Virus record (IMG/VR): IMGVR_UViG_3300033512_000504
Direction: 5' to 3' (one strand)
DNA length: 64,000 nt
From: a virus
Both the position numbers and the translations under genes were made by a program. This document shows positions 2,547 to 64,000 of this stretch, piece by piece. How positions within the stretch are numbered: the stretch's first letter is position 1; each line of letters begins with the position of its first letter. Under the pieces are notes generated by a model that did not search any database, was not told the DNA's origin, and worked only from the letters and a program-made list of their open reading frames with translations.

Positions 2547-2978
2547 TTAATTCTTTTCAGGCAAATCGTATTCAAAAACAGGCAACCCTTTATCTTTAGC
2601 CATTTTTGTTTCTTTAATTGATTGTTTACCTCCACCAACTCTAACAAGGCAGTCAATATAATCGATAAAATATTCAGATTCATCTCCGAACTTCTCACCA
2701 CGTATTATCTCTTTATCAACATCGTAACAATCATATTTCTTTGCTTCTTGGGCAGACAAACCAACCGTTATCCATTCATTAGCGTCAGCCATTTCGTAAG
2801 CGATCTTTGGAATCCCGCAACTAGTTAAACCTGATACCAATTCATATTGTGAAGATTTAAATTGCTTTTCAACTATATCCAATGCAATAGCCATCAAAGC
2901 CTTTGCTATTGTTTGATCAAATTTCTTGTCGTCCGAATATCCTACCACGCCGATCTTTGTTATGTTTTTTTCACTCAT
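2547..2978 (-). CDS. SLOG/LOG-like Rossmann-fold protein
   Basis: IGVVGYS, LVSG..GIP, LVRVGGGKQS..E pattern. Confidence 0.55.
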   Translation of the reverse strand: MSEKNITKIGVVGYSDDKKFDQTIAKALMAIALDIVEKQFKSSQYELVSGLTSCGIPKIAYEMADANEWITVGLSAQEAKKYDCYDVDKEIIRGEKFGDESEYFIDYIDCLVRVGGGKQSIKETKMAKDKGLPVFEYDLPEKN

Positions 2979-3025
2979 ATTTCCTTTAATTATACAACAG
3001 TTATTCCCATAATATTCCTAACGAT

Positions 3026-3796
3026 TCATAAATCTTCATTGCTGCCGCCCCATCCATCAGGGTTAGCGATATAACTCTTAACACTGTTTAATATGTTTTT
3101 ATTTTTCGATTGATCTTTCAAATCGCCTGCCAAATTTGGTTTTCCGTGCGGCTGGTGGAACAACATTATAGAATTCGTTTCTTCGCCAAGCCATTTTATC
3201 TTTGCCCCACTAATTCCCATGCGGTTTAACAAGTCGCAATCTTCAGAACCCCAACCCAAATACCGTTCATCAAACCCTCGAACTTTATTCCATAATTTAC
3301 GATGAGCGCATTGACAACCACCCGCTGTCGTTCTCTTTTTTATCCTTCCTATTTTACAACTATTTAAGTCAATAAATGGATTTAATTTGCCATTATAAAT
3401 TTGATCCGCCAATGGTTGTTTCCAATACATCGTTCTTGATTCAATAAAATGATTTTCAGAACATTTGCTCAATAATGTTTCTACAAATTCAGTTGCAAAA
3501 AACATATCAACATCTGTTGTCATTATGTAATCAGAAGATGAGTTTTTTATTGCGACATTATTTAGTCTGGATCGTTCAAATTTTTCACCAATTGGAAATC
3601 GAACAATTTTAATTGGGAAATTATTATAGTTTTTCGCAAAATCTTCAAGATCCTGTATATTGTCGCTACCACCATCTGCAATAACTAACTCGAAGTCTTT
3701 ACATGTTTGGTTTTCCAAGGATTTAATAAACCATTTCGTTGAATTCGACAATGGATTAAATCTATTTCTATTGGATGTTGCAATCGATAATTTCAT
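3026..3796 (-). CDS. GT2/GT7C galactosyltransferase-like glycosyltransferase
   Basis: VIADGGS, TTDVD, GFDERYLGWGSED. Confidence 0.85.
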   Translation of the reverse strand: MKLSIATSNRNRFNPLSNSTKWFIKSLENQTCKDFELVIADGGSDNIQDLEDFAKNYNNFPIKIVRFPIGEKFERSRLNNVAIKNSSSDYIMTTDVDMFFATEFVETLLSKCSENHFIESRTMYWKQPLADQIYNGKLNPFIDLNSCKIGRIKKRTTAGGCQCAHRKLWNKVRGFDERYLGWGSEDCDLLNRMGISGAKIKWLGEETNSIMLFHQPHGKPNLAGDLKDQSKNKNILNSVKSYIANPDGWGGSNEDL

Positions 3797-4365: not shown

Positions 4366-5151
4366 TTATATTGCTAGTTTTAATCCCTCCGTGCATTTAT
4401 GGAATATTTTAGTCTTAAACAGTCTGTGGTTTTCTCTGTACATTTGATACATATATGTACTAACGTCCGTATTATGATGACAAGACTGAAATAGACCATA
4501 CGTACTAAATCTCATAAATTCCTCTGGTAGTGAATCCTGATAAATATTATATTTTGGTTCAAAAGCATGAGCGAAAGAAACTTGGTCATGTGGCATTTTT
4601 AATGAAAGTACATAATTTATAAAATCAATATCTTGAATAAAATAAACCCCTAGTTGCGGCTGCTTCTGGCTACCTCTAGTACACACTGAATGATCCTTTA
4701 AATGCATTGGATCACCTCGAAGATTTAACGTTTCCCATTCAACTCGAATTGGTTGCTTGCATAAAAACTCGATTTCTTGATCTGATAATTTCTCGCTGAC
4801 ACAACAATCGTTAAAATCCATCCATAAGATAGGCTCTTTTAAATCATTCAATGCGTTTGATACAATTTGAGTTTTAGGATAGAATAAACCGTTATTCTTA
4901 TCTAAATTACTAGCACATATAAAATCAATATTGCTATTTTGTAATTCGGATATTAACTCTTGATGATCCTTGGAATTTATTAAGTCGGAATCTACATACA
5001 AAATAAAATCATCTCCCAATTTACTTTTGTTATGCCGAAATATGTCTAGTTTGGTGTGATATTGCTTAGAAGACTCAACGGCATTTTTATAATACTTTGC
5101 AGTCAGCCCTTTTTTGTTAGGCGGTAAATAAATTGCGGTTATATATTTCAT
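4366..5151 (-). CDS. putative nucleotide-sugar transferase-like protein
   Basis: YVDSD and LWMD motifs; lies inside the GT operon. Confidence 0.35.
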   Translation of the reverse strand: MKYITAIYLPPNKKGLTAKYYKNAVESSKQYHTKLDIFRHNKSKLGDDFILYVDSDLINSKDHQELISELQNSNIDFICASNLDKNNGLFYPKTQIVSNALNDLKEPILWMDFNDCCVSEKLSDQEIEFLCKQPIRVEWETLNLRGDPMHLKDHSVCTRGSQKQPQLGVYFIQDIDFINYVLSLKMPHDQVSFAHAFEPKYNIYQDSLPEEFMRFSTYGLFQSCHHNTDVSTYMYQMYRENHRLFKTKIFHKCTEGLKLAI

Positions 5152-18559: not shown

Positions 18560-19315
18560 TTAATTCCTTTTTATATGAACCCTTGCACTTCTTCCACTTA
18601 GCCACTTAAAATTACAATCAATCAACGTCATGGTAATGTCTCTTTCATCTTCCGCTTCTTGCAAATCTGGTCCCGAAGCCGTATGCGATTTGTCCACCCA
18701 AGTTTCAACCATCATCGCATTTGAATTACTATGGTTACACAAATTGTTAATAACATCATACGGATTTGGAACATGTTCTAATACATCCATTACGCAAATA
18801 ATGTCAAATTTTCTGTCAAAAACAGGCAGCATGCAATCCTGACTTATTTCATGAAAATTAAAACTCGCATGTGGGGCTTTCTTGTGAAGTCTCCATTTTG
18901 CAAAATTCAAATGCTCTCCGCCTACATCCACCAATGAAAAATTCATACTGTTAATATCAAAATCTCTAGGATTTTCTATTATAAAATTAGTTAATGGAGC
19001 AACACCGCAACCATACTCTACTATAGAACAACCATTAAACAAATAGGGATAAAACTTTTTAGCATAATCATAGTCCTTGCGATAATTACATTGTCTAAAA
19101 ACCTGCCAAGCACCAATATCCTTGTAAAAATCCATCTTCTTTTGTATAGTATCTCTTGGCTTGCAATCCCATAACTCTTCAAATGTCTTCCCACTAACGG
19201 CTTCACATGTCGGGGATGACGGCAAATTAGGTTTTCTTCCAGATCTTCTTGTACCTAACTCTATTGCATCTTCAACTGAAACATTATAATATTCACATAA
19301 ATCTGTATACCACAT
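18560..19315 (-). CDS. class I SAM methyltransferase
   Basis: VEYGCG, FDIICVMDVLEHV. Confidence 0.8.
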   Translation of the reverse strand: MWYTDLCEYYNVSVEDAIELGTRRSGRKPNLPSSPTCEAVSGKTFEELWDCKPRDTIQKKMDFYKDIGAWQVFRQCNYRKDYDYAKKFYPYLFNGCSIVEYGCGVAPLTNFIIENPRDFDINSMNFSLVDVGGEHLNFAKWRLHKKAPHASFNFHEISQDCMLPVFDRKFDIICVMDVLEHVPNPYDVINNLCNHSNSNAMMVETWVDKSHTASGPDLQEAEDERDITMTLIDCNFKWLSGRSARVHIKRN

Positions 19316-28790: not shown

Positions 28791-28877
28791 ATGAAAACGT
28801 ATTTAGACAACCTTAGTTCGCTATCAAGTAGCAGTTATTGCTCCTTGATCCGCAGGGGTTTGTCTTGCGATTTCTAG
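28791..28877 (+). CDS. putative attenuator leader peptide, Ser/Cys-rich (MKTYLDNLSSLSSSSYCSLIRRGLSCDF)
   Basis: 8 Ser and 2 Cys codons in 28; precedes a terminator and tRNA-Cys/Ser genes. Confidence 0.65.
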   Translation: MKTYLDNLSSLSSSSYCSLIRRGLSCDF

Positions 28878-28898
28878 ATTGAAATTGCAAATTGATTT

Positions 28899-28932
28899 AA
28901 AAACCCCGTTCGGAAACGAAACGGGGTTTTTT
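28899..28932 (+). terminator. intrinsic terminator (attenuator 1)
   Basis: AAAAACCCCGTTCG-GAAA-CGAAACGGGGTTTTTT. Confidence 0.85.
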
Positions 28933-28975
28933 GTTTTTAGGGAGAAATTGATTATCAGAGAATAAAAATTAGATA

Positions 28976-29050
28976 GCACCGATGGTTGAGTGGTTAGACG
29001 GCAGACTGCAAATCTGTCCTACGGGGGTTCAATTCCCTCTCGGTGCTCCA
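28976..29050 (+). tRNA. tRNA-Cys(GCA)
   Basis: GCACCGA/TCGGTGC acceptor, U73, CCA; anticodon arm GCAGA-CTGCAAA-TCTGT. Confidence 0.95.
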
Positions 29051-30203: not shown

Positions 30204-30292
30204 GGAAGTGTGTCCGAGTTGGTCTATGGAACTGGTCTAGAAAACCAGCAGGTGTCACAGCCTCGTGAGTTCGAATCTCACCGCTTCCGCCA
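30204..30292 (+). tRNA. tRNA-Ser(AGA)
   Basis: GGAAGTG/CGCTTCC, G73, CCA, long variable arm; CTGGT-CT AGA AA-ACCAG. Confidence 0.85.
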
Positions 30293-39743: not shown

Positions 39744-39836
39744 ATGAATACTGTTATAGATATGAGAGATATGCGCTGGGATAGGATGAGCCTTCGGGTT
39801 CCTGCCTACGATCCCGCTTTATCTGCGTATAGATAA
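39744..39836 (+). CDS. putative attenuator leader peptide, Met-rich (MNTVIDMRDMRWDRMSLRVPAYDPALSAYR)
   Basis: 3 internal ATG codons plus one ATA; precedes a terminator and two CAT tRNAs. Confidence 0.6.
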   Translation: MNTVIDMRDMRWDRMSLRVPAYDPALSAYR

Positions 39837-39859
39837 CGGATCTTAGAAAAGGATTTAGG

Positions 39860-39890
39860 AACCCAAGGCTTAACTGTCTTGGGTTTTTTT
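39860..39890 (+). terminator. intrinsic terminator (attenuator 2)
   Basis: AACCCAAGGC-TTAACT-GTCTTGGGTT followed by a T run. Confidence 0.85.
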
Positions 39891-39935
39891 GTGTCGAAAT
39901 TTGATCTTTTAAAAATGAATATAGTTTAATATGAT

Positions 39936-40012
39936 TGCGGGAGGCTAGGACGTGGTGTTCTGGCGAGCCTCATAAGCTTGCAACTTGGGTTCGAGTCCCA
40001 ATCCCGCTACCA
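39936..40012 (+). tRNA. tRNA-Met(CAT), initiator-like 1:72 mismatch
   Basis: TGCGGGA/TCCCGCT, A73, CCA; CT CAT AA loop. Confidence 0.8.
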
Positions 40013-40029
40013 ATTTTAAAAAAGTATAT

Positions 40030-40106
40030 AGCGGTGTAGCTCAGTTGGTTAGAGCAGATCCTTCATACGGATAAGGTCGGGGGTTCGAATCCCTCCGCCG
40101 CTACCA
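40030..40106 (+). tRNA. tRNA(CAT): elongator Met or Ile2
   Basis: AGCGGTG/CGCCGCT, TT CAT AC loop, CCA. Confidence 0.9.
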
Positions 40107-40450: not shown

Positions 40451-41820
40451 ATCAACTACCCAATGACTAAAGATCATTGGGTTTGCGAGACCTTATCTCA
40501 CTATTAGCACGTTGATGGTGCTTGCCTATTAGGTTCAATCTACCGTCAATAGGTATATTAAACGAAACAGGGAGTTCTACGCCTTTTACTTTCTTTCTCA
40601 TGGCGTAACGATTTGCAATGTTTATTGATGCATTCCAGTCAGCATCAAAAACTTTGCTATCGCTTGTGTAATACCTACATCCCTGTCTTTTTCCTTTTTT
40701 AATACCTCTATAGTCATTCTTTGAGGTATAGGCAGGGTCAACCGTTACCACTATTTTCCCCTGTAGTGGTGCCTTGTAGGTTAATATTCTTCTTAAATCA
40801 AAATATGGAACTTGAGCTTGTTTGTTATTGAATTTCTTTCCTCTGTGGTGTTGTTTTATTCCACTCAAATCTTCCATTACTATTACATTGCATTTTGTTT
40901 CTAGGATTTTGTTCGAAATAAGATGTGATTCGTTTTTATTCTTATTGAACTCTTTTTTCTTAAGTGTTTTTAGTTTTTTCTGTGCTGAACGAGAAAAAGA
41001 AGTCTTACTCTTTGATTTAAATATTCTCTTTTTATATCTAAGTTTTCGTTTCTCTTTAAGAAATTGTTTATCTGTTATTGCTATGCCTTCCGATGTAGTA
41101 GCTAATCTTTTTATCCCCAAGTCTATTCCAATACAACCGTTTTCAATTAGTGTTGGTGTATTGACTTCAAAGGAAACTGAAAGCCATATATCATTATTCC
41201 TTACAAAAAGAAGTGGATCACAAACAGAATATTTTAAAAACATATCTTTGAATTTATCATATGGAGAATACGAGCAAACTATTCTTTTTCCTGTAGTTGT
41301 TAGTTTTATTTGATTATTAGGAAGAAAAGTGTATATTCTTTTGTCCAGTCTAATTGAAAGGTTTTCTTGTTTTGCTGCTTCAGTAATATTTTGGTGATTT
41401 GATTGAATAGTTTTATATGTGGAGTAAACCGAATCTTTTGCTCTGATGATTACTTGAGATGGACAATTTGGAAATAGGTTTCTGCATTGATGGTAGTTTT
41501 TGTCATGGATTAGTTTCTTATCAACGGTTTTAGATTCAAAAACATATTCTGCCATATAATTCCAAACTTTTTGATGTTCCAAAAGCATATCGACAAGAGA
41601 GGTTTTATCTTCTTGCTTTTGGAATTGGAGTTTAATATTATATGTTAAAACGTTCATATTTATGTATTTCTATATTTATTTATCATTTTCCTTTATTTTT
41701 GTTGCTTTTTGTTAAAATATAGCTATAATATAGAAAATAAGAAAGGAGATGGGCGGATTTAGACTGGTTGAAAATGGTTTCGCTTACCCACGACACTGAA
41801 GATGTCGGGGTTTCCGCTCA
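40451..41820 (-). mobile_element. non-autonomous IS200/IS605 (tnpB-only) element
   Basis: Left end TGAGCGGAAACCCC..GGGTAAGCGAA (41820 downward) resembles the 54059 left end; right end CCCAATGA..TCATTGGGTAGTTGAT. Confidence 0.75.
40467..41657 (-). CDS. tnpB: TnpB, copy 2 (Zn-finger cysteines largely absent)
   Basis: GIDLG, VMEDL, DADWNAS; no CxxC pairs before RuvC-III. Confidence 0.9.
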   Translation of the reverse strand: MNVLTYNIKLQFQKQEDKTSLVDMLLEHQKVWNYMAEYVFESKTVDKKLIHDKNYHQCRNLFPNCPSQVIIRAKDSVYSTYKTIQSNHQNITEAAKQENLSIRLDKRIYTFLPNNQIKLTTTGKRIVCSYSPYDKFKDMFLKYSVCDPLLFVRNNDIWLSVSFEVNTPTLIENGCIGIDLGIKRLATTSEGIAITDKQFLKEKRKLRYKKRIFKSKSKTSFSRSAQKKLKTLKKKEFNKNKNESHLISNKILETKCNVIVMEDLSGIKQHHRGKKFNNKQAQVPYFDLRRILTYKAPLQGKIVVTVDPAYTSKNDYRGIKKGKRQGCRYYTSDSKVFDADWNASINIANRYAMRKKVKGVELPVSFNIPIDGRLNLIGKHHQRANSEIRSRKPNDL

Positions 41821-43115: not shown

Positions 43116-43907
43116 ATGATATTAAAGCATTATGAATTAAACGAACACGAACAAGCGTTAGCAAATATGACTGTTCAAGAATTTGATAAATATATGACAG
43201 ACAATTATGCACAGCTTTTCAAGAACCGATTTCGGACTCCTGAAGATCAATATATTATGCCTATGCATTTTGGATTTGAAATCGGACCGGGTTGGCGTCA
43301 TGTATTGGATTCTTTATGTTCTAAATTAAAATTCATTCAAGATCATTTCAATGTGACGTGCGTATTCGACCAAATCAAAGAAAAAATGGGAGGGGCACGA
43401 TTTTACAGCCATGTTGAAATCAATCAATCTTCAAATTTAACAGAAAAAGAATATGCTATTATCGACGATATAATTTCAACGCTTGTTTCAAATAGCGAAG
43501 AGTATTGCGACTATATTTGTGAAGTTATCGGGAATAATATTGATCCTTGGGAGAAGATAAAGTTAGGTGGATGGTATTATGGATGTGGACTAGAAGGATT
43601 CAAGGTTCAATGGGAAGATTCTCCAGATAGAATTATAGCTGCTGAAAAAGCTTACGAACGGTCATCAAAGTTGCATGATATCGAATCTCGCATGGGAATT
43701 TTAAATGACGAGGAATTAGACGCAATAGAAGAAAGAATAGCAGAAAAAGAAGAAGAAATAAGAAACAAAACACTAGCCGTTTGTGATCGCATAGAGGCTA
43801 AGTTTAAATTAAATCAAGCAAAAAATGTAGACAAAAACAAAGAAAAAGTTGATGGTCAAGTTTGGTCGAATTTTAGTCCAACATTTGACGATATCGAAGA
43901 ATATTAA
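43116..43907 (+). CDS. conserved-looking phage hypothetical protein
   Basis: GFE.GPGW, QIKEK.GG.RFY, C.V.G motifs. Confidence 0.6.
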   Translation: MILKHYELNEHEQALANMTVQEFDKYMTDNYAQLFKNRFRTPEDQYIMPMHFGFEIGPGWRHVLDSLCSKLKFIQDHFNVTCVFDQIKEKMGGARFYSHVEINQSSNLTEKEYAIIDDIISTLVSNSEEYCDYICEVIGNNIDPWEKIKLGGWYYGCGLEGFKVQWEDSPDRIIAAEKAYERSSKLHDIESRMGILNDEELDAIEERIAEKEEEIRNKTLAVCDRIEAKFKLNQAKNVDKNKEKVDGQVWSNFSPTFDDIEEY

Positions 43908-43917
43908 ATAATAAAGT

Positions 43918-43992
43918 GTCCCTATAGTGTAATGGACAGCACAAAAGCCTTCTAAGCTTTTAGTCTAGGTTCGAATCCTAGTAGGGACGCCA
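43918..43992 (+). tRNA. tRNA-Arg(TCT)
   Basis: GTCCCTA/TAGGGAC, CT TCT AA loop, GCCA. Confidence 0.95.
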
Positions 43993-44900: not shown

Positions 44901-45050
44901 TATTAATATTTCAAAAAACTGCCGATTATGTCCTTTTTATGGATTTTTGAAGATTATACTTGATTTTGAAAAATTATTATGTATAATGGAGTTATAAATT
45001 AAAGGAATTTAGAAAACGATTTTGAATAAGTAGAGATAGGAGTTCACAAT

Positions 45051-45125
45051 ATGTCATTTATGCAACAACAGAATAATCAAAATAACCAAAAGCCTGAGGG
45101 CTTCTTGGAACGGATTATTCTGTAA
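45051..45125 (+). CDS. putative attenuator leader peptide, Gln/Asn-rich (MSFMQQQNNQNNQKPEGFLERIIL)
   Basis: SD GGAG at an 8-nt spacing; nine consecutive Q/N codons; precedes Asn/Gln/Asn tRNAs. Confidence 0.8.
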   Translation: MSFMQQQNNQNNQKPEGFLERIIL

Positions 45126-45147
45126 AAAGCATAATCAAAGTCCACTG

Positions 45148-45179
45148 AAGACCCTCGGAAATTTCTGAGGGTCTTTTTT
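45148..45179 (+). terminator. intrinsic terminator (attenuator 3)
   Basis: AAGACCCTCGGAA-AT-TTCTGAGGGTCTT followed by a T run. Confidence 0.85.
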
Positions 45180-45204
45180 ATTGATCTTTTAACAATTTAA
45201 ATAT

Positions 45205-45280
45205 TCCGGTGTAGCTCAGTTGGTAGAGTAGGTGACTGTTAATCACCCCGTCGCTGGTTCGAGTCCAGCCACCGGAGCCA
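45205..45280 (+). tRNA. tRNA-Asn(GTT)
   Basis: TCCGGTG/CACCGGA, G73, CCA. Confidence 0.95.
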
Positions 45281-45286
45281 TTTTAT

Positions 45287-45362
45287 TGACTCGTAGTACA
45301 ATTGGCAGTACACCAGATTTTGATTCTGGGTGTTGGTGGTTCGAGTCCACCCGAGTCAACCA
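45287..45362 (+). tRNA. tRNA-Gln(TTG)
   Basis: TGACTCG/CGAGTCA, TT TTG AT loop, CCA. Confidence 0.95.
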
Positions 45363-45379
45363 TTTTAAAATTTGAATAT

Positions 45380-45455
45380 TCCTGATTAGCTCAATTGGTG
45401 GAGCAAGATGCTGTTAACATCGAGGTTCGGGGTCCGAGTCCCTGATCAGGAGCCA
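45380..45455 (+). tRNA. tRNA-Asn(GTT), second copy
   Basis: TCCTGAT/ATCAGGA, CT GTT AA loop; T-loop has TCC instead of TTC. Confidence 0.9.
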
Positions 45456-45460
45456 TTTTG

Positions 45461-45499
45461 TGGCAGTAGCAAAATGTTTTGCTACTGCCATATTTTTTT
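45461..45499 (+). terminator. hairpin terminator after the Asn/Gln cluster
   Basis: TGGCAGTAGCAAAA..TTTTGCTACTGCCA followed by a T run. Confidence 0.75.
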
Positions 45500-54557: not shown

Positions 54558-54609
54558 TATTTTAAAGGATTATTTTATGCTTTTGTTGTGTAATACAAGA
54601 GTTAGCATA

Positions 54610-55806
54610 AATATATTATACAAAAACGTTATGAAAAAGAACTACAAATTCAGATTATATCCTACGAAAAAGCAAGAAAGAGAACTACTTGCAACACTTG
54701 AGGAATGTCGTTTTGTATACAATAAAATACTTGATACTAGAATTAAAACTTATGAATCTGAAAAGAAAACGCTTAACAAATACGATACAAATAATCTAAT
54801 CAAAGAATGGAAAACAGAAAGAGAACCACTTCAAAACATACATTCCCAAGTAGTTCAAAACGTATCAGAGCGAGTAGATTTAGCATTTAAAGCGTTTTTC
54901 CGTCGATGCAAGGAGAAAGGAGAAAAAGCAGGATTCCCAAGATTTAAACAATTTGGTAGATATGACTCATTCTGTTTTCCTCAATCAGGATTTTCTTTAA
55001 CTCAAAACGAAAAACGGTTAAAGCTTTCAAAAATCGGTTGCATTAAAATTGTATCTCATAGAACTCTTCCAGAACAAGTAAAGAGATTAACAATACAAAG
55101 AACAAAAAGTGGCAAATGGCATGCTATATTTTCATGCGTTTTAGCTGATGTAAAGAGAACAAACAATAACCCTGCTGTAGGAATTGATTTAGGATTAAAA
55201 GAGTTTGCAGTTCTTTCTAATGGTGATAAAATAAAAAGAGAACGTTTCTTTAAAGAGGGTGAAAAGAAATTAGCAAAGGAACAACGCAAATTTTCAAAAT
55301 TAGATAAGAAAACTCCAGAACGGAACAAACAAAGAATGATTGTTGGTAAAGTGCATGAGAAGATTCAAAATCAACGTTCTGATTTCACACATAAGTTATC
55401 AAAAGCACTTGTTCAAAAATACGGAATTATTTGTTTGGAGAAATTAAATATCAAATCCATGCAAGAACAAGATAAGATTTCAGTAAATGGCAAAGAAATA
55501 AAGGCAACAAGAACACATAAAAGTATACAGGATGTTGCTTGGAATCAATTCGTACAACAATTAGAGTATAAAGCGGAAGAAGCTGGTACTAGGATTGTGT
55601 TCGTAAATCCCAAGAATACTACTAAGATGTGTTCAAGTTGTGGTAAATTAACTAGTAAGGAACTATCAGATAGAATCCATGAATGCAGTTTGTGTGGATT
55701 AGTAATGGATAGGGATTTAAATGCTAGTAAAAATATTTTGAGAATCGGAATGGATTCTCTTAGGGATAGAGATATTCCTATAGAAGCCCCTACGCCTTTA
55801 GGCTAG
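54610..55806 (+). CDS. tnpB: TnpB, copy 3
   Basis: YKFRLYP, GIDLG, CLEKL, CSSC/CSLC, DRDLNAS. Confidence 0.95.
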   Translation, partial: NILYKNVMKKNYKFRLYPTKKQERELLATLEECRFVYNKILDTRIKTYESEKKTLNKYDTNNLIKEWKTEREPLQNIHSQVVQNVSERVDLAFKAFFRRCKEKGEKAGFPRFKQFGRYDSFCFPQSGFSLTQNEKRLKLSKIGCIKIVSHRTLPEQVKRLTIQRTKSGKWHAIFSCVLADVKRTNNNPAVGIDLGLKEFAVLSNGDKIKRERFFKEGEKKLAKEQRKFSKLDKKTPERNKQRMIVGKVHEKIQNQRSDFTHKLSKALVQKYGIICLEKLNIKSMQEQDKISVNGKEIKATRTHKSIQDVAWNQFVQQLEYKAEEAGTRIVFVNPKNTTKMCSSCGKLTSKELSDRIHECSLCGLVMDRDLNASKNILRIGMDSLRDRDIPIEAPTPLG

Positions 55807-62278: not shown

Positions 62279-62898
62279 CTTCCGTAATATTCATCGTATA
62301 ATTTGAAATATTTTTCAGGCATTGGAAAAGTAAATTTTTTTGGTAAATTACTATATATTGATGAAGTTTCGTATGGTGGTTTTTTGGTTTTGTTAGAATA
62401 CCATTTTCTTTTTATCATTGCGTAGTTATAAAAATATACATACGAATTTGCTTTTTGTGTATATGTCTCACGGCAAATTGGCAAGTTGAATTTCTTAAAT
62501 ATTTTTATTGCTCTTTTTTCGCAATCTAACTCTAATAGTTGAATTGTTTTTACAGCGTTTTGTACGGCTTCGTCGTCCATTTCTTTTTTATGTGACAACC
62601 ATAGGAAAAATTTTTCTACTTGATCTTCTCCATTTAAGTACATTTTTGTCCAAACATCGCATTGTTCTTCCCACTGAGTAAAATGAGCATATTCATGTAC
62701 TAATATCGGTATCCATTCTGTTTCTGGTTTGTTAATAGCACATCTTAATATTTTGTTGTCTCCATCAAAATAGCCTGAACATCTTATTTTATCGCTGTTT
62801 AAGACTACATATTTTGATTTAGATAAGTCAAGTTTTACTTTGTTATCATGTAAAGTTTCTTTAATGTACAATATAAACTTTGTTGTTTGTTTATCCAA
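62275..62898 (-). CDS. putative Zn metallopeptidase (HExxH)
   Basis: LVHEYAH, ELDCE. Confidence 0.65.
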   Translation of the reverse strand: MDKQTTKFILYIKETLHDNKVKLDLSKSKYVVLNSDKIRCSGYFDGDNKILRCAINKPETEWIPILVHEYAHFTQWEEQCDVWTKMYLNGEDQVEKFFLWLSHKKEMDDEAVQNAVKTIQLLELDCEKRAIKIFKKFNLPICRETYTQKANSYVYFYNYAMIKRKWYSNKTKKPPYETSSIYSNLPKKFTFPMPEKYFKLYDEYYGS

Positions 62899-63052
62899 GA
62901 TGTATTTACATTCAATATTATGCCGTTTTTATTCTGTTTTAATATTTTTTAAAAAAATATTTGCTTTTTAAAAAAATCTGGTATAATATACATGTTGAAA
63001 ATAAATAAAGGATTTATCAATTAAAAATAAGAACGAGTTTTAAAGGTACAAA

Positions 63053-63136
63053 ATGAACATAAATACTATCCATATTCCAGAACATATTGAGGAACCCATT
63101 GCCCTCAGGCACGGGTATGGAATTGGTTTGTTCTAA
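63053..63136 (+). CDS. putative attenuator leader peptide, Ile/His/Pro/Glu-rich (MNINTIHIPEHIEEPIALRHGYGIGLF)
   Basis: SD AAGG; codons 6-16 are only I/H/P/E; precedes His/Ile/Pro/Glu tRNAs. Confidence 0.8.
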   Translation: MNINTIHIPEHIEEPIALRHGYGIGLF

Positions 63137-63152
63137 TTCTGTATAAGGTTTT

Positions 63153-63191
63153 AAACCCCTTGCCTGACGAAAGTTAAGCAAGGGGTTTTTT
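63153..63191 (+). terminator. intrinsic terminator (attenuator 4)
   Basis: AAACCCCTTGCCTGAC-GAAA-GTTAAGCAAGGGGTTTTTT. Confidence 0.9.
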
Positions 63192-63206
63192 ATTGCTCTT
63201 TTTAGG

Positions 63207-63235
63207 TTGACAAATAGAAAATAAAATGTTAGGAT
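63207..63235 (+). promoter_or_regulatory. sigma70-like promoter upstream of tRNA-His
   Basis: TTGACA-N17-TAGGAT. Confidence 0.5.
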
Positions 63236-63250
63236 GTTTGAAAATTTAAT

Positions 63251-63328
63251 GGCGGATGTAGCTCAATTGGTTAGAGCGTCAGATTGTGAATCTGAATGTT
63301 GCGGGTTCGAACCCCGTCATCCACCCCA
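63251..63328 (+). tRNA. tRNA-His(GTG)
   Basis: G-1/C73 pair, TT GTG AA loop, CCA. Confidence 0.9.
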
Positions 63329-63342
63329 ATTTTAGGATAAAA

Positions 63343-63522
63343 ATGAAAGAGTTATGGATGGAAGGAGTTAGAGAGATAACTGTTGATACAATGAATCTAA
63401 TTGAAAATAGATTGAAAGAATTCGGAATTGTCTTAACAGATTCAGAAGAAGATGATATACATAATAAGATATGGAATGTTTTAGAGAATAGAAGCAATGG
63501 CGAATATAAAAATCATATGTAA
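63343..63522 (+). CDS. hypothetical protein between tRNA genes
   Basis: SD AGGA; 59 aa. Confidence 0.55.
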   Translation: MKELWMEGVREITVDTMNLIENRLKEFGIVLTDSEEDDIHNKIWNVLENRSNGEYKNHM

Positions 63523-63559
63523 CAATATGGTTAGATCTTTGAAAATATAGTAATTTAAT

Positions 63560-63637
63560 AGGTGGGTAGCTCAGTTGGTTAGCAGCGTCTGTCTGATACA
63601 CAGAAGGTCGGGGGTTCGACTCCCTCTCCACCTACCA
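63560..63637 (+). tRNA. tRNA-Ile(GAT)
   Basis: AGGTGGG/TCCACCT, CT GAT AC loop, CCA. Confidence 0.95.
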
Positions 63638-63646
63638 ATTTTTAAA

Positions 63647-63745
63647 CAGCGAGTGGAAGAGTCTGGCTATCTTCGTACGGCTTGGAACCGGATATGTGTA
63701 CTAAGCGTGTATGCATCGGGGGTTCGAATCCCTCCTCGCTGACCA
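63647..63745 (+). tRNA. tRNA-Pro(TGG) with long variable arm (99 nt)
   Basis: CAGCGAG/CTCGCTG (C1-G72, A73), CT TGG AA loop, extra arm of about 24 nt, CCA. Confidence 0.75.
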
Positions 63746-63753
63746 ATTTTAAT

Positions 63754-63839
63754 GCCCCTATGGAGTAAACGGCTAACTCGTCAGACTTTCAATCTGGAGA
63801 CATCTAATGCTAGTGCGGGTTCGAATCCCGCTAGGGGTA
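63754..63839 (+). tRNA. tRNA-Glu(TTC) with extended variable region, no encoded CCA
   Basis: GCCCCTA/TAGGGGT, CT TTC AA loop, GGTTCGAATCC. Confidence 0.75.
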
Positions 63840-63943
63840 CATATTTAACTGTCTAAATAGTTTTGTGAAATTAGTTTTTAATAAAAAAAATAAAGGATTT
63901 GTATTCGATTCTCCAGAAATATCTATATAAGGAGAATTTAATA

Positions 63944-64000
63944 ATGAAAAGATTATGTGATCAAGCCAGAAAAATAAACGCCATAAAACGGTATGAAGAA
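63944..64000 (+). CDS. start of a CDS running off the window
   Basis: SD AGGAG; MKRLCDQARKINAIKRYEE. Confidence 0.55.
   Translation, partial: MKRLCDQARKINAIKRYEE

Follow-up and report, generated by a model that had tools for sequence, protein, structure and literature searches.

The viral DNA analysed here, a 64-kb stretch of IMG/VR record IMGVR_UViG_3300033512_000504 (hereafter the window), carries a short open reading frame (ORF) followed by an intrinsic terminator ahead of a cluster of genes for tRNA-His, tRNA-Ile, tRNA-Pro and tRNA-Glu. Eleven consecutive codons of this ORF specify only the four amino acids of the downstream tRNAs, and the segment that follows them can pair with the 5' arm of the terminator. 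Judging from sequence, we consider it very probable that positions 62960-63193 constitute a ribosome-mediated (leader-peptide) transcription attenuator that would gate read-through from an upstream promoter-like site, P1, into the tRNA cluster. The window is a phage-like contig with 33% GC and 13 tRNA genes; all positions refer to its numbering and to the + strand unless stated otherwise.

The locus comprises, in order on the + strand, P1, a Shine-Dalgarno-like AAAGG, the leader ORF, the terminator, a second promoter-like site (P2), tRNA-His, a 59-amino-acid ORF, tRNA-Ile, tRNA-Pro and tRNA-Glu. P1 (62960-62987), the putative promoter of the leader transcript, combines an extended -10 element (TGGTATAAT, 62979-62987) with a weak -35. 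The predicted ORF, co-oriented with the tRNA genes as expected of a leader-peptide attenuator, has 27 codons plus stop (63053-63136), and the AAAGG (63042-63046) that could serve as its ribosome-binding site lies 6 nucleotides (nt) upstream of its ATG. Because the neighbouring upstream gene lies on the opposite strand, P1, the short ORF and the terminator form a self-contained unit.

The initial annotation had described codons 6-16 of the leader as limited to the amino acids of the four downstream tRNAs. Re-reading the sequence bore this out, as it did every coordinate and string given there: the run, IHIPEHIEEPI (63068-63100), consists of four Ile, two His, two Pro and three Glu codons, so that 11 of 11 consecutive codons are control codons for the relevant amino acids. 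Nowhere else in the six frames of the 64 kb do eight or more residues in a row all belong to {I,H,P,E}. Simulations using the phage's own amino-acid usage, in which Ile accounts for 8.2% and Glu for 6.7% of residues, yielded a scan-statistic P of ~5e-6 for the run, and the expected number of such runs of at least 11 residues in the window is 0.0008.

An intrinsic terminator (63154-63193) lies between the leader and the tRNA genes. Its 14-bp hairpin (63154-63187), closed by a GAAA loop, has a predicted energy of -21 to -22.4 kcal/mol (z = -6.0) and leads into a tract of six T (63186-63191) followed by TT. The initial annotation had also noted that TCAGGCACGGG (63105-63115) is complementary to CCCTTGCCTGA (63157-63167) in the terminator arm, and the two strings do pair along their whole length bar one C/U mismatch. 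We used RNAduplex to find the segment, anywhere from the start codon to the terminator, that pairs most stably with the terminator 5' arm, and compared the outcome with 500 dinucleotide shuffles. The top-scoring pairing joins 63104-63116 to 63156-63168 with an energy of -17.9 kcal/mol (shuffles: mean -11.4, standard deviation 2.4), which 1.4% of the shuffles match. This putative antiterminator segment (region 2, 63104-63116) is located 1-5 codons past the end of the run, and its pairing is mutually exclusive with the terminator. The predicted antiterminator fold (63103-63169) reaches -25.3 kcal/mol (z = -3.4) and holds codons 22-28 and the stop codon in its loop. When the footprint of a ribosome was masked codon by codon in silico, the antiterminator pairing could form for A-site positions from codon 2 to codon 14 but not for those from codon 16 to codon 25, which in the model is the geometry of an attenuator whose stalled and advancing ribosomes select alternative structures.

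The same arrangement recurs at three other loci of the window and at four loci of a relative, G001, a 161-kb IMG/VR contig whose ThyX protein is 73% identical. The units of the window emerged from a list of the short ORFs that precede each of its tRNA clusters, and with those of G001 the total comes to eight units, whose matching codon sets are of six kinds. The cleanest example is the Asn/Gln unit (44960-45492), for which folding predicts a complete three-structure scheme, with energies of -21.9 kcal/mol (z = -5.2) for the 1:2 structure, -28.7 for 2:3 and ~-20 for 3:4. It consists of a promoter-like site (44960-44987), a leader (45051-45125) with the run QQQNNQNNQ (P ~5e-6), an antiterminator segment (45093-45105) whose pairing is equalled by 0.2% of shuffles, a terminator (45147-45176), genes for tRNA-Asn, tRNA-Gln and tRNA-Asn (45205-45455) that begin 30 nt past the terminator, and an end terminator (45459-45492). 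In the Ser/Cys unit (28791-29050), a leader (28791-28877) with the run SSLSSSSYCS and an antiterminator segment (28854-28862; equalled by 1.4% of shuffles) precede a terminator (28899-28931) and tRNA-Cys (28976-29050), with the tRNA-Ser genes farther downstream, at 30204 and 30893; the probability of the run is 0.06 for Cys alone and 1e-5 for Cys and Ser together.

The Met unit (39744-40106) has a leader (39744-39836) with the run MRDMRWDRM, an antiterminator segment (39789-39804) with a pairing energy of -21.8 kcal/mol that 0 of 500 shuffles equalled, a terminator (39859-39886) and two tRNA genes with CAT anticodons (39936-40106); P is 0.009 for Met alone. The stretch DMRDMRWDRM in this leader contains Asp, Met, Arg and Trp only, yet just the two CAT tRNAs stand behind it. 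The start of G001 (1-461) carries a cluster of tRNA(CAT), tRNA-Asp, one tRNA without assigned identity, tRNA-Trp and tRNA-Arg(CCU), the leader of which has been lost at the contig start, and the Met-unit leader may record a larger or ancestral tRNA cluster.

In G001, the run NQQNNQQNQN precedes tRNA-Asn-Gln-Asn, IHIPEHIEIPEPI precedes tRNA-His-Ile-Glu-Pro, FSFFSF precedes tRNA-Phe, and KTKTVEKATVFKKTV, the run of a Lys/Thr/Val leader, precedes tRNA-Lys(UUU)-Val(UAC)-Thr(UGU)-Thr(CGU). The initial annotation had proposed comparing the leaders of relatives with different tRNA sets, and in this comparison the codon sets follow the downstream tRNAs. In a cross matrix of leaders and tRNA sets, every leader scored highest with its own set, and the permutation probability of such a perfect assignment for six sets is 1/720. 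Neither chance nor an unrelated small gene can account for the recurrence of matching codon sets at three other window loci and four G001 loci. Beyond amino-acid identity, the run codons show no more than weak trends towards those that the downstream anticodons can read: the four Ile codons in the IHIPEHIEEPI run do not include ATA, which makes up 45% of the phage's Ile codons and is not read by tRNA-Ile(GAU), and in G001 ACG accounts for two of four Thr codons, against 17% usage.

The same loci emerged when strong hairpin-plus-T-tract terminators were sought without bias on the + strands of the window and G001. Four of the six strong terminators in the window and four of ~11 in G001 lie 8-185 nt ahead of a tRNA cluster; each of these tRNA-adjacent terminators stands behind a codon-matched leader, and the remaining terminators have no comparable leader. 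Seven of 10 loci show a complementarity between leader and terminator arm greater than in at least 98.6% of shuffled sequences, and the complementary segment falls at codons 15-24 at every locus, straight after the run. Ribosome-mask folding of the other seven units gave a pattern similar to that of the His-type unit.

The His-type leader could be compared in four versions, those of the window, G001 and two metagenome contigs, L035 and L036, all of which have His, Ile, Pro and Glu tRNAs behind the leader. Across the four aligned versions, the extended -10 element and the upstream TTGCTTTTT are invariant, and the relatives have an AGGTA spaced similarly ahead of the homologous ATG. Codons 1-12 encode the same amino acids in G001, L035 and L036, with synonymous changes only. 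The end of the run varies (EEPI, EIPEPI or ILPEP), with 14 of the 15 variable residues falling within {H,I,P,E}, and downstream of the run the peptides diverge freely. The terminator sequence of the window and G001 likewise differs from that of L035 and L036, and the antiterminator partner ahead of it changes in step; in G001, the antiterminator of the His-type unit has an energy of -19.4 kcal/mol, which 0 of 500 shuffles equalled. Since run composition and pairing are kept while the peptide diverges, selection appears to act on composition and RNA pairing and not on peptide sequence.

An exact scan of viral contigs for the leader pattern retrieved the already known relative only. A search for sequencing runs containing the stretch listed no RNA run. 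Mapping the four best DNA runs to the stretch gave nothing beyond contig pieces belonging to this phage and one relative, with no informative variant within the control run. An ORF on the antisense strand of the leader (63017-63181) was dismissed because its length is not kept in G001. HNH-type endonuclease ORFs with their own TGTATAAT promoter occur in L035 (2796-3497) and L036 (~2615-3310), and a second HNH-type ORF (4421-5026) interrupts the tRNA cluster of L035. A short sequence, CATACTCCCACGACTAAAGCTCGTGGGGTTCT, follows the 59-amino-acid ORF in L036 (4166-4230) and is found again at the contig end of G001 (161215-161250) and as a loose end in one DNA run; it may mark a mobile-element or recombination boundary.

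From the anatomy of the locus, the statistical excess of control codons, the recurrence of leaders with matching sets and their conservation and co-variation, we infer translation of the leader, stalling of ribosomes on it and regulated read-through, which would operate as follows. P1 transcripts would start near 62995 and a ribosome would translate the 27-codon leader. If charged tRNA-His, tRNA-Ile, tRNA-Pro or tRNA-Glu were scarce, the ribosome would stall within codons 6-14 and leave 63104-63116 free to pair with 63156-63168 once transcribed. The resulting antiterminator fold (~-25 kcal/mol) would consume the terminator 5' arm, allowing RNA polymerase to read into the tRNA genes. If all four tRNAs were plentiful, the ribosome would proceed over codons 15-28, covering the antiterminator segment or sitting in its loop, whereupon the terminator (~-22 kcal/mol plus T tract) would form and transcription would end at ~63190.

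A stall at any of the four codon kinds would suffice, and the element would therefore work as a four-input OR gate; its products are the very tRNAs that would relieve the stall, making it a negative-feedback supply sensor. The proposal of the initial annotation that one sensor integrates four tRNA pools is thus supported by the set match, the recurrence and the co-variation, with read-through on stalling as its conjectural component. For the phage as a whole, it is fairly likely that the units form a modular homeostat of tRNA supply, in which every tRNA operon is headed by a 'checklist' leader of its own, read by the ribosome, and would be transcribed only when those codons decode slowly. Such slow decoding could stem from an AT-rich phage outrunning the tRNA pool of its host, or from host anticodon nucleases depleting tRNAs.

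Several observations weigh against the attenuator interpretation. Coupling of transcription and translation in the host is an assumption. The 1:2 protector hairpin that would join the run to the antiterminator segment (63069-63121) is weak in the His-type unit (-14.6 kcal/mol, z = -1.2). The thermodynamic model predicts the antiterminator even without any ribosome, leaving the default state in the absence of translation ambiguous, and the equilibrium fold of the full-length RNA is always the terminator, so that any switch must be kinetic. Pairing of the antiterminator segment with the terminator arm does not reach significance in L035, where 28% of shuffles equal it, and is borderline in L036 (5%) and in the Phe unit of G001. 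In addition, P2 may allow the cluster to be expressed to a large extent independently of the attenuator, and in L035 and L036 the HNH gene, with its own promoter, lies between the terminator and tRNA-His.

The part played by P2 defines the main alternative, in which P2 drives the tRNA cluster, while P1, the short ORF and the terminator now have no regulatory effect on the tRNAs, being either a small transcription unit of their own or a decayed remnant. The TTGACA-N17-TAGGAT site that the initial annotation had placed past the terminator, as a possible source of attenuator-independent expression, is present at 63207-63235 and has a TG before its -10 (TTGACA-N17-TGtTAGGAT). It is among 22 + strand sites of the window that score at least 10/12, one of only two of these with TG, and is well placed, with transcription expected to start ~8-10 nt ahead of tRNA-His; the chance of finding such a site in the 60-nt gap between terminator and tRNA is ~0.02, and L035 and L036 carry a post-terminator promoter too. 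P2 is thus probably a real promoter that would add expression independent of the attenuator. In G001, however, P2 is missing (TTGACA is replaced by TTTAAA) and no + strand promoter-like site is found between the terminator and tRNA-His, and the 8-50 nt that separate terminator and first tRNA in the sister units leave no room for a good promoter. Moreover, the leader, its run, the promoter and the complementarity between antiterminator and terminator are kept or co-vary in four diverged sequences, whereas a relic or an unrelated gene would not hold its composition to the downstream tRNA set. We therefore regard it as unlikely that P2 alone accounts for the cluster.

An explanation independent of translation, in which a protein or Nus-type antitermination overrides a terminator that serves as a timing device and the short ORF is incidental, can invoke the use of antitermination for temporal control, which is common in phages, and a TGMTCTTT motif resembling the boxA of rrn operons that follows three of the four attenuator terminators. 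In the His-type unit this boxA-like motif (TGCTCTTTTTA, 63194-63204) comes directly after the T tract, and the three sites of the window that match TGMTCTTTWNA (39902-39912, 45182-45192 and 63194-63204, all on the + strand) each lie 6-16 nt past an attenuator T tract, which is a striking placement. The motif was, however, defined after the sites had been seen, and its count is not above chance (3 versus 1.9 expected); lying downstream of the terminator, it could act only on polymerases that are already through. Antitermination of this kind also leaves unexplained both the match of each leader to its own tRNA set and, at most loci, the complementarity of the post-run segment to the terminator arm, and we hold it to be quite improbable. 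That an AT-rich genome might by chance yield an Ile- and Glu-rich short ORF beside a terminator has in its favour that both residues are common here and that the observation was picked after being seen. The 0.0008 runs expected, the eight units with six sets and the assignment probability of 1/720 effectively refute it, and we give it almost no credence. Set against these alternatives, leader-peptide attenuation is the reading that we retain.

The tRNA genes of the cluster have several features of their own. tRNA-His(GUG), with encoded G-1 and CCA, spans 63251-63328 (63252-63328 in ARAGORN; 68.6 bits with the Rfam tRNA model), and is followed by the 59-amino-acid ORF (63343-63522), which is 76-92% identical in G001, L035 and L036. 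tRNA-Ile(GAU) (63560-63637), tRNA-Pro(UGG) (63647-63745) and tRNA-Glu(UUC) (63754-63840; 59.7 bits with the Rfam tRNA model) were all predicted by ARAGORN. The tRNA-Pro, 99 nt in length with an 8-bp variable-arm hairpin, C1:G72 and A73, fell below the threshold of the Rfam tRNA model and was missed by it; the same 99-nt form recurs in L035 (5039-5137). Enlarged variable regions in class I tRNAs are seen in this tRNA-Pro, in the 87-nt tRNA-Glu with its long variable loop, and in the 91-nt tRNA-His of G001 (19082-19172). Elsewhere in the window, a tRNA-Ser with an A34 anticodon (AGA) at 30204-30292 is unusual among bacteria and phages, and a tRNA-Arg(UCU) at 43885-43992 is leaderless, with a promoter-like TTGACG-N16-AATAAT ending 6 nt upstream, from which it follows that not every tRNA of the phage is attenuator-gated.

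DNA of this phage lineage comes from microbial-mat, soda-lake and sediment metagenomes. A DNA search of a phage collection gave matches at the tRNA level only, two neighbouring proteins had no relatives among the viral contigs searched, and scans with PHROGs and Pfam returned no hallmark annotation that would point to a phage family or host. The window contains two genes for IS605-type TnpB (Cas12f-like) proteins (54577-55806 and 40467-41657), and the top genome matches of the former, at 42-46% identity, are metagenome-assembled genomes of Oscillochloris/Chloroflexales. These matches offer a weak hint of a host in the Chloroflexales, which would fit a microbial-mat origin, and are too weak to name the host.

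The putative attenuator shares with that of the his operon (hisL), and with trpL, leuL and pheL, a translated leader, control codons, mutually exclusive hairpins, an intrinsic terminator and a logic in which stalling leads to read-through. It differs from the hisL type in that it would regulate tRNA genes and not biosynthesis genes, in that its run mixes four amino acids and in the weakness of its 1:2 hairpin; an Rfam search detected no amino-acid leader family, including His_leader, at E <= 1 in 62800-64000, nor at gathering score anywhere in the window. The thrL (Thr and Ile) and ilvL/ivbL (Ile, Leu and Val) leaders likewise respond to shortage of several amino acids through one leader acting as an OR gate, but their sets are the end products of a pathway, whereas those of the phage correspond to the downstream tRNA genes and vary from unit to unit (N/Q, F, K/T/V or H/I/P/E). 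The pheM leader of E. coli pheST provides leader-peptide attenuation of phenylalanyl-tRNA synthetase; it too places the translation apparatus for an amino acid under attenuation by that same amino acid, with the difference that its target is a synthetase protein and its input single. T-box riboswitches also sense tRNA charging and switch between terminator and antiterminator ahead of translation-related genes, but they recognise uncharged tRNA by direct contact, using a specifier codon and the conserved T-box, and require no translation, while the proposed sensor in the phage is the translating ribosome; the T-box family (RF00230) had no Rfam match in 62800-64000 or in the whole window.

To our knowledge, described leader-peptide attenuators control amino-acid biosynthesis, transport or synthetase genes in every case. 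The genes downstream of the present leader are instead four tRNAs and a 59-amino-acid ORF, and full-text literature searches, which covered a minority of subscription journals, returned no paper in which tRNA genes are controlled by leader-peptide attenuation. What appears to be new is that, as the sequence suggests, the logic of attenuation would be applied to tRNA genes themselves, in a virus, with leaders tailored to each tRNA set.

If this interpretation is correct, large phages would express their tRNA genes as demand arises and not constitutively, and the control runs of the leaders would offer a direct read-out of the codons "expected" by the phage to limit decoding in its host. It would also suggest a built-in response to depletion of host tRNAs, including depletion by tRNA-cleaving defences, and the leaders would represent compact natural multi-input sensors of decoding capacity. 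The matching of leader codons to downstream anticodons provides, in addition, a route to predicting operon structure and tRNA identity in the genomes of uncultured phages.

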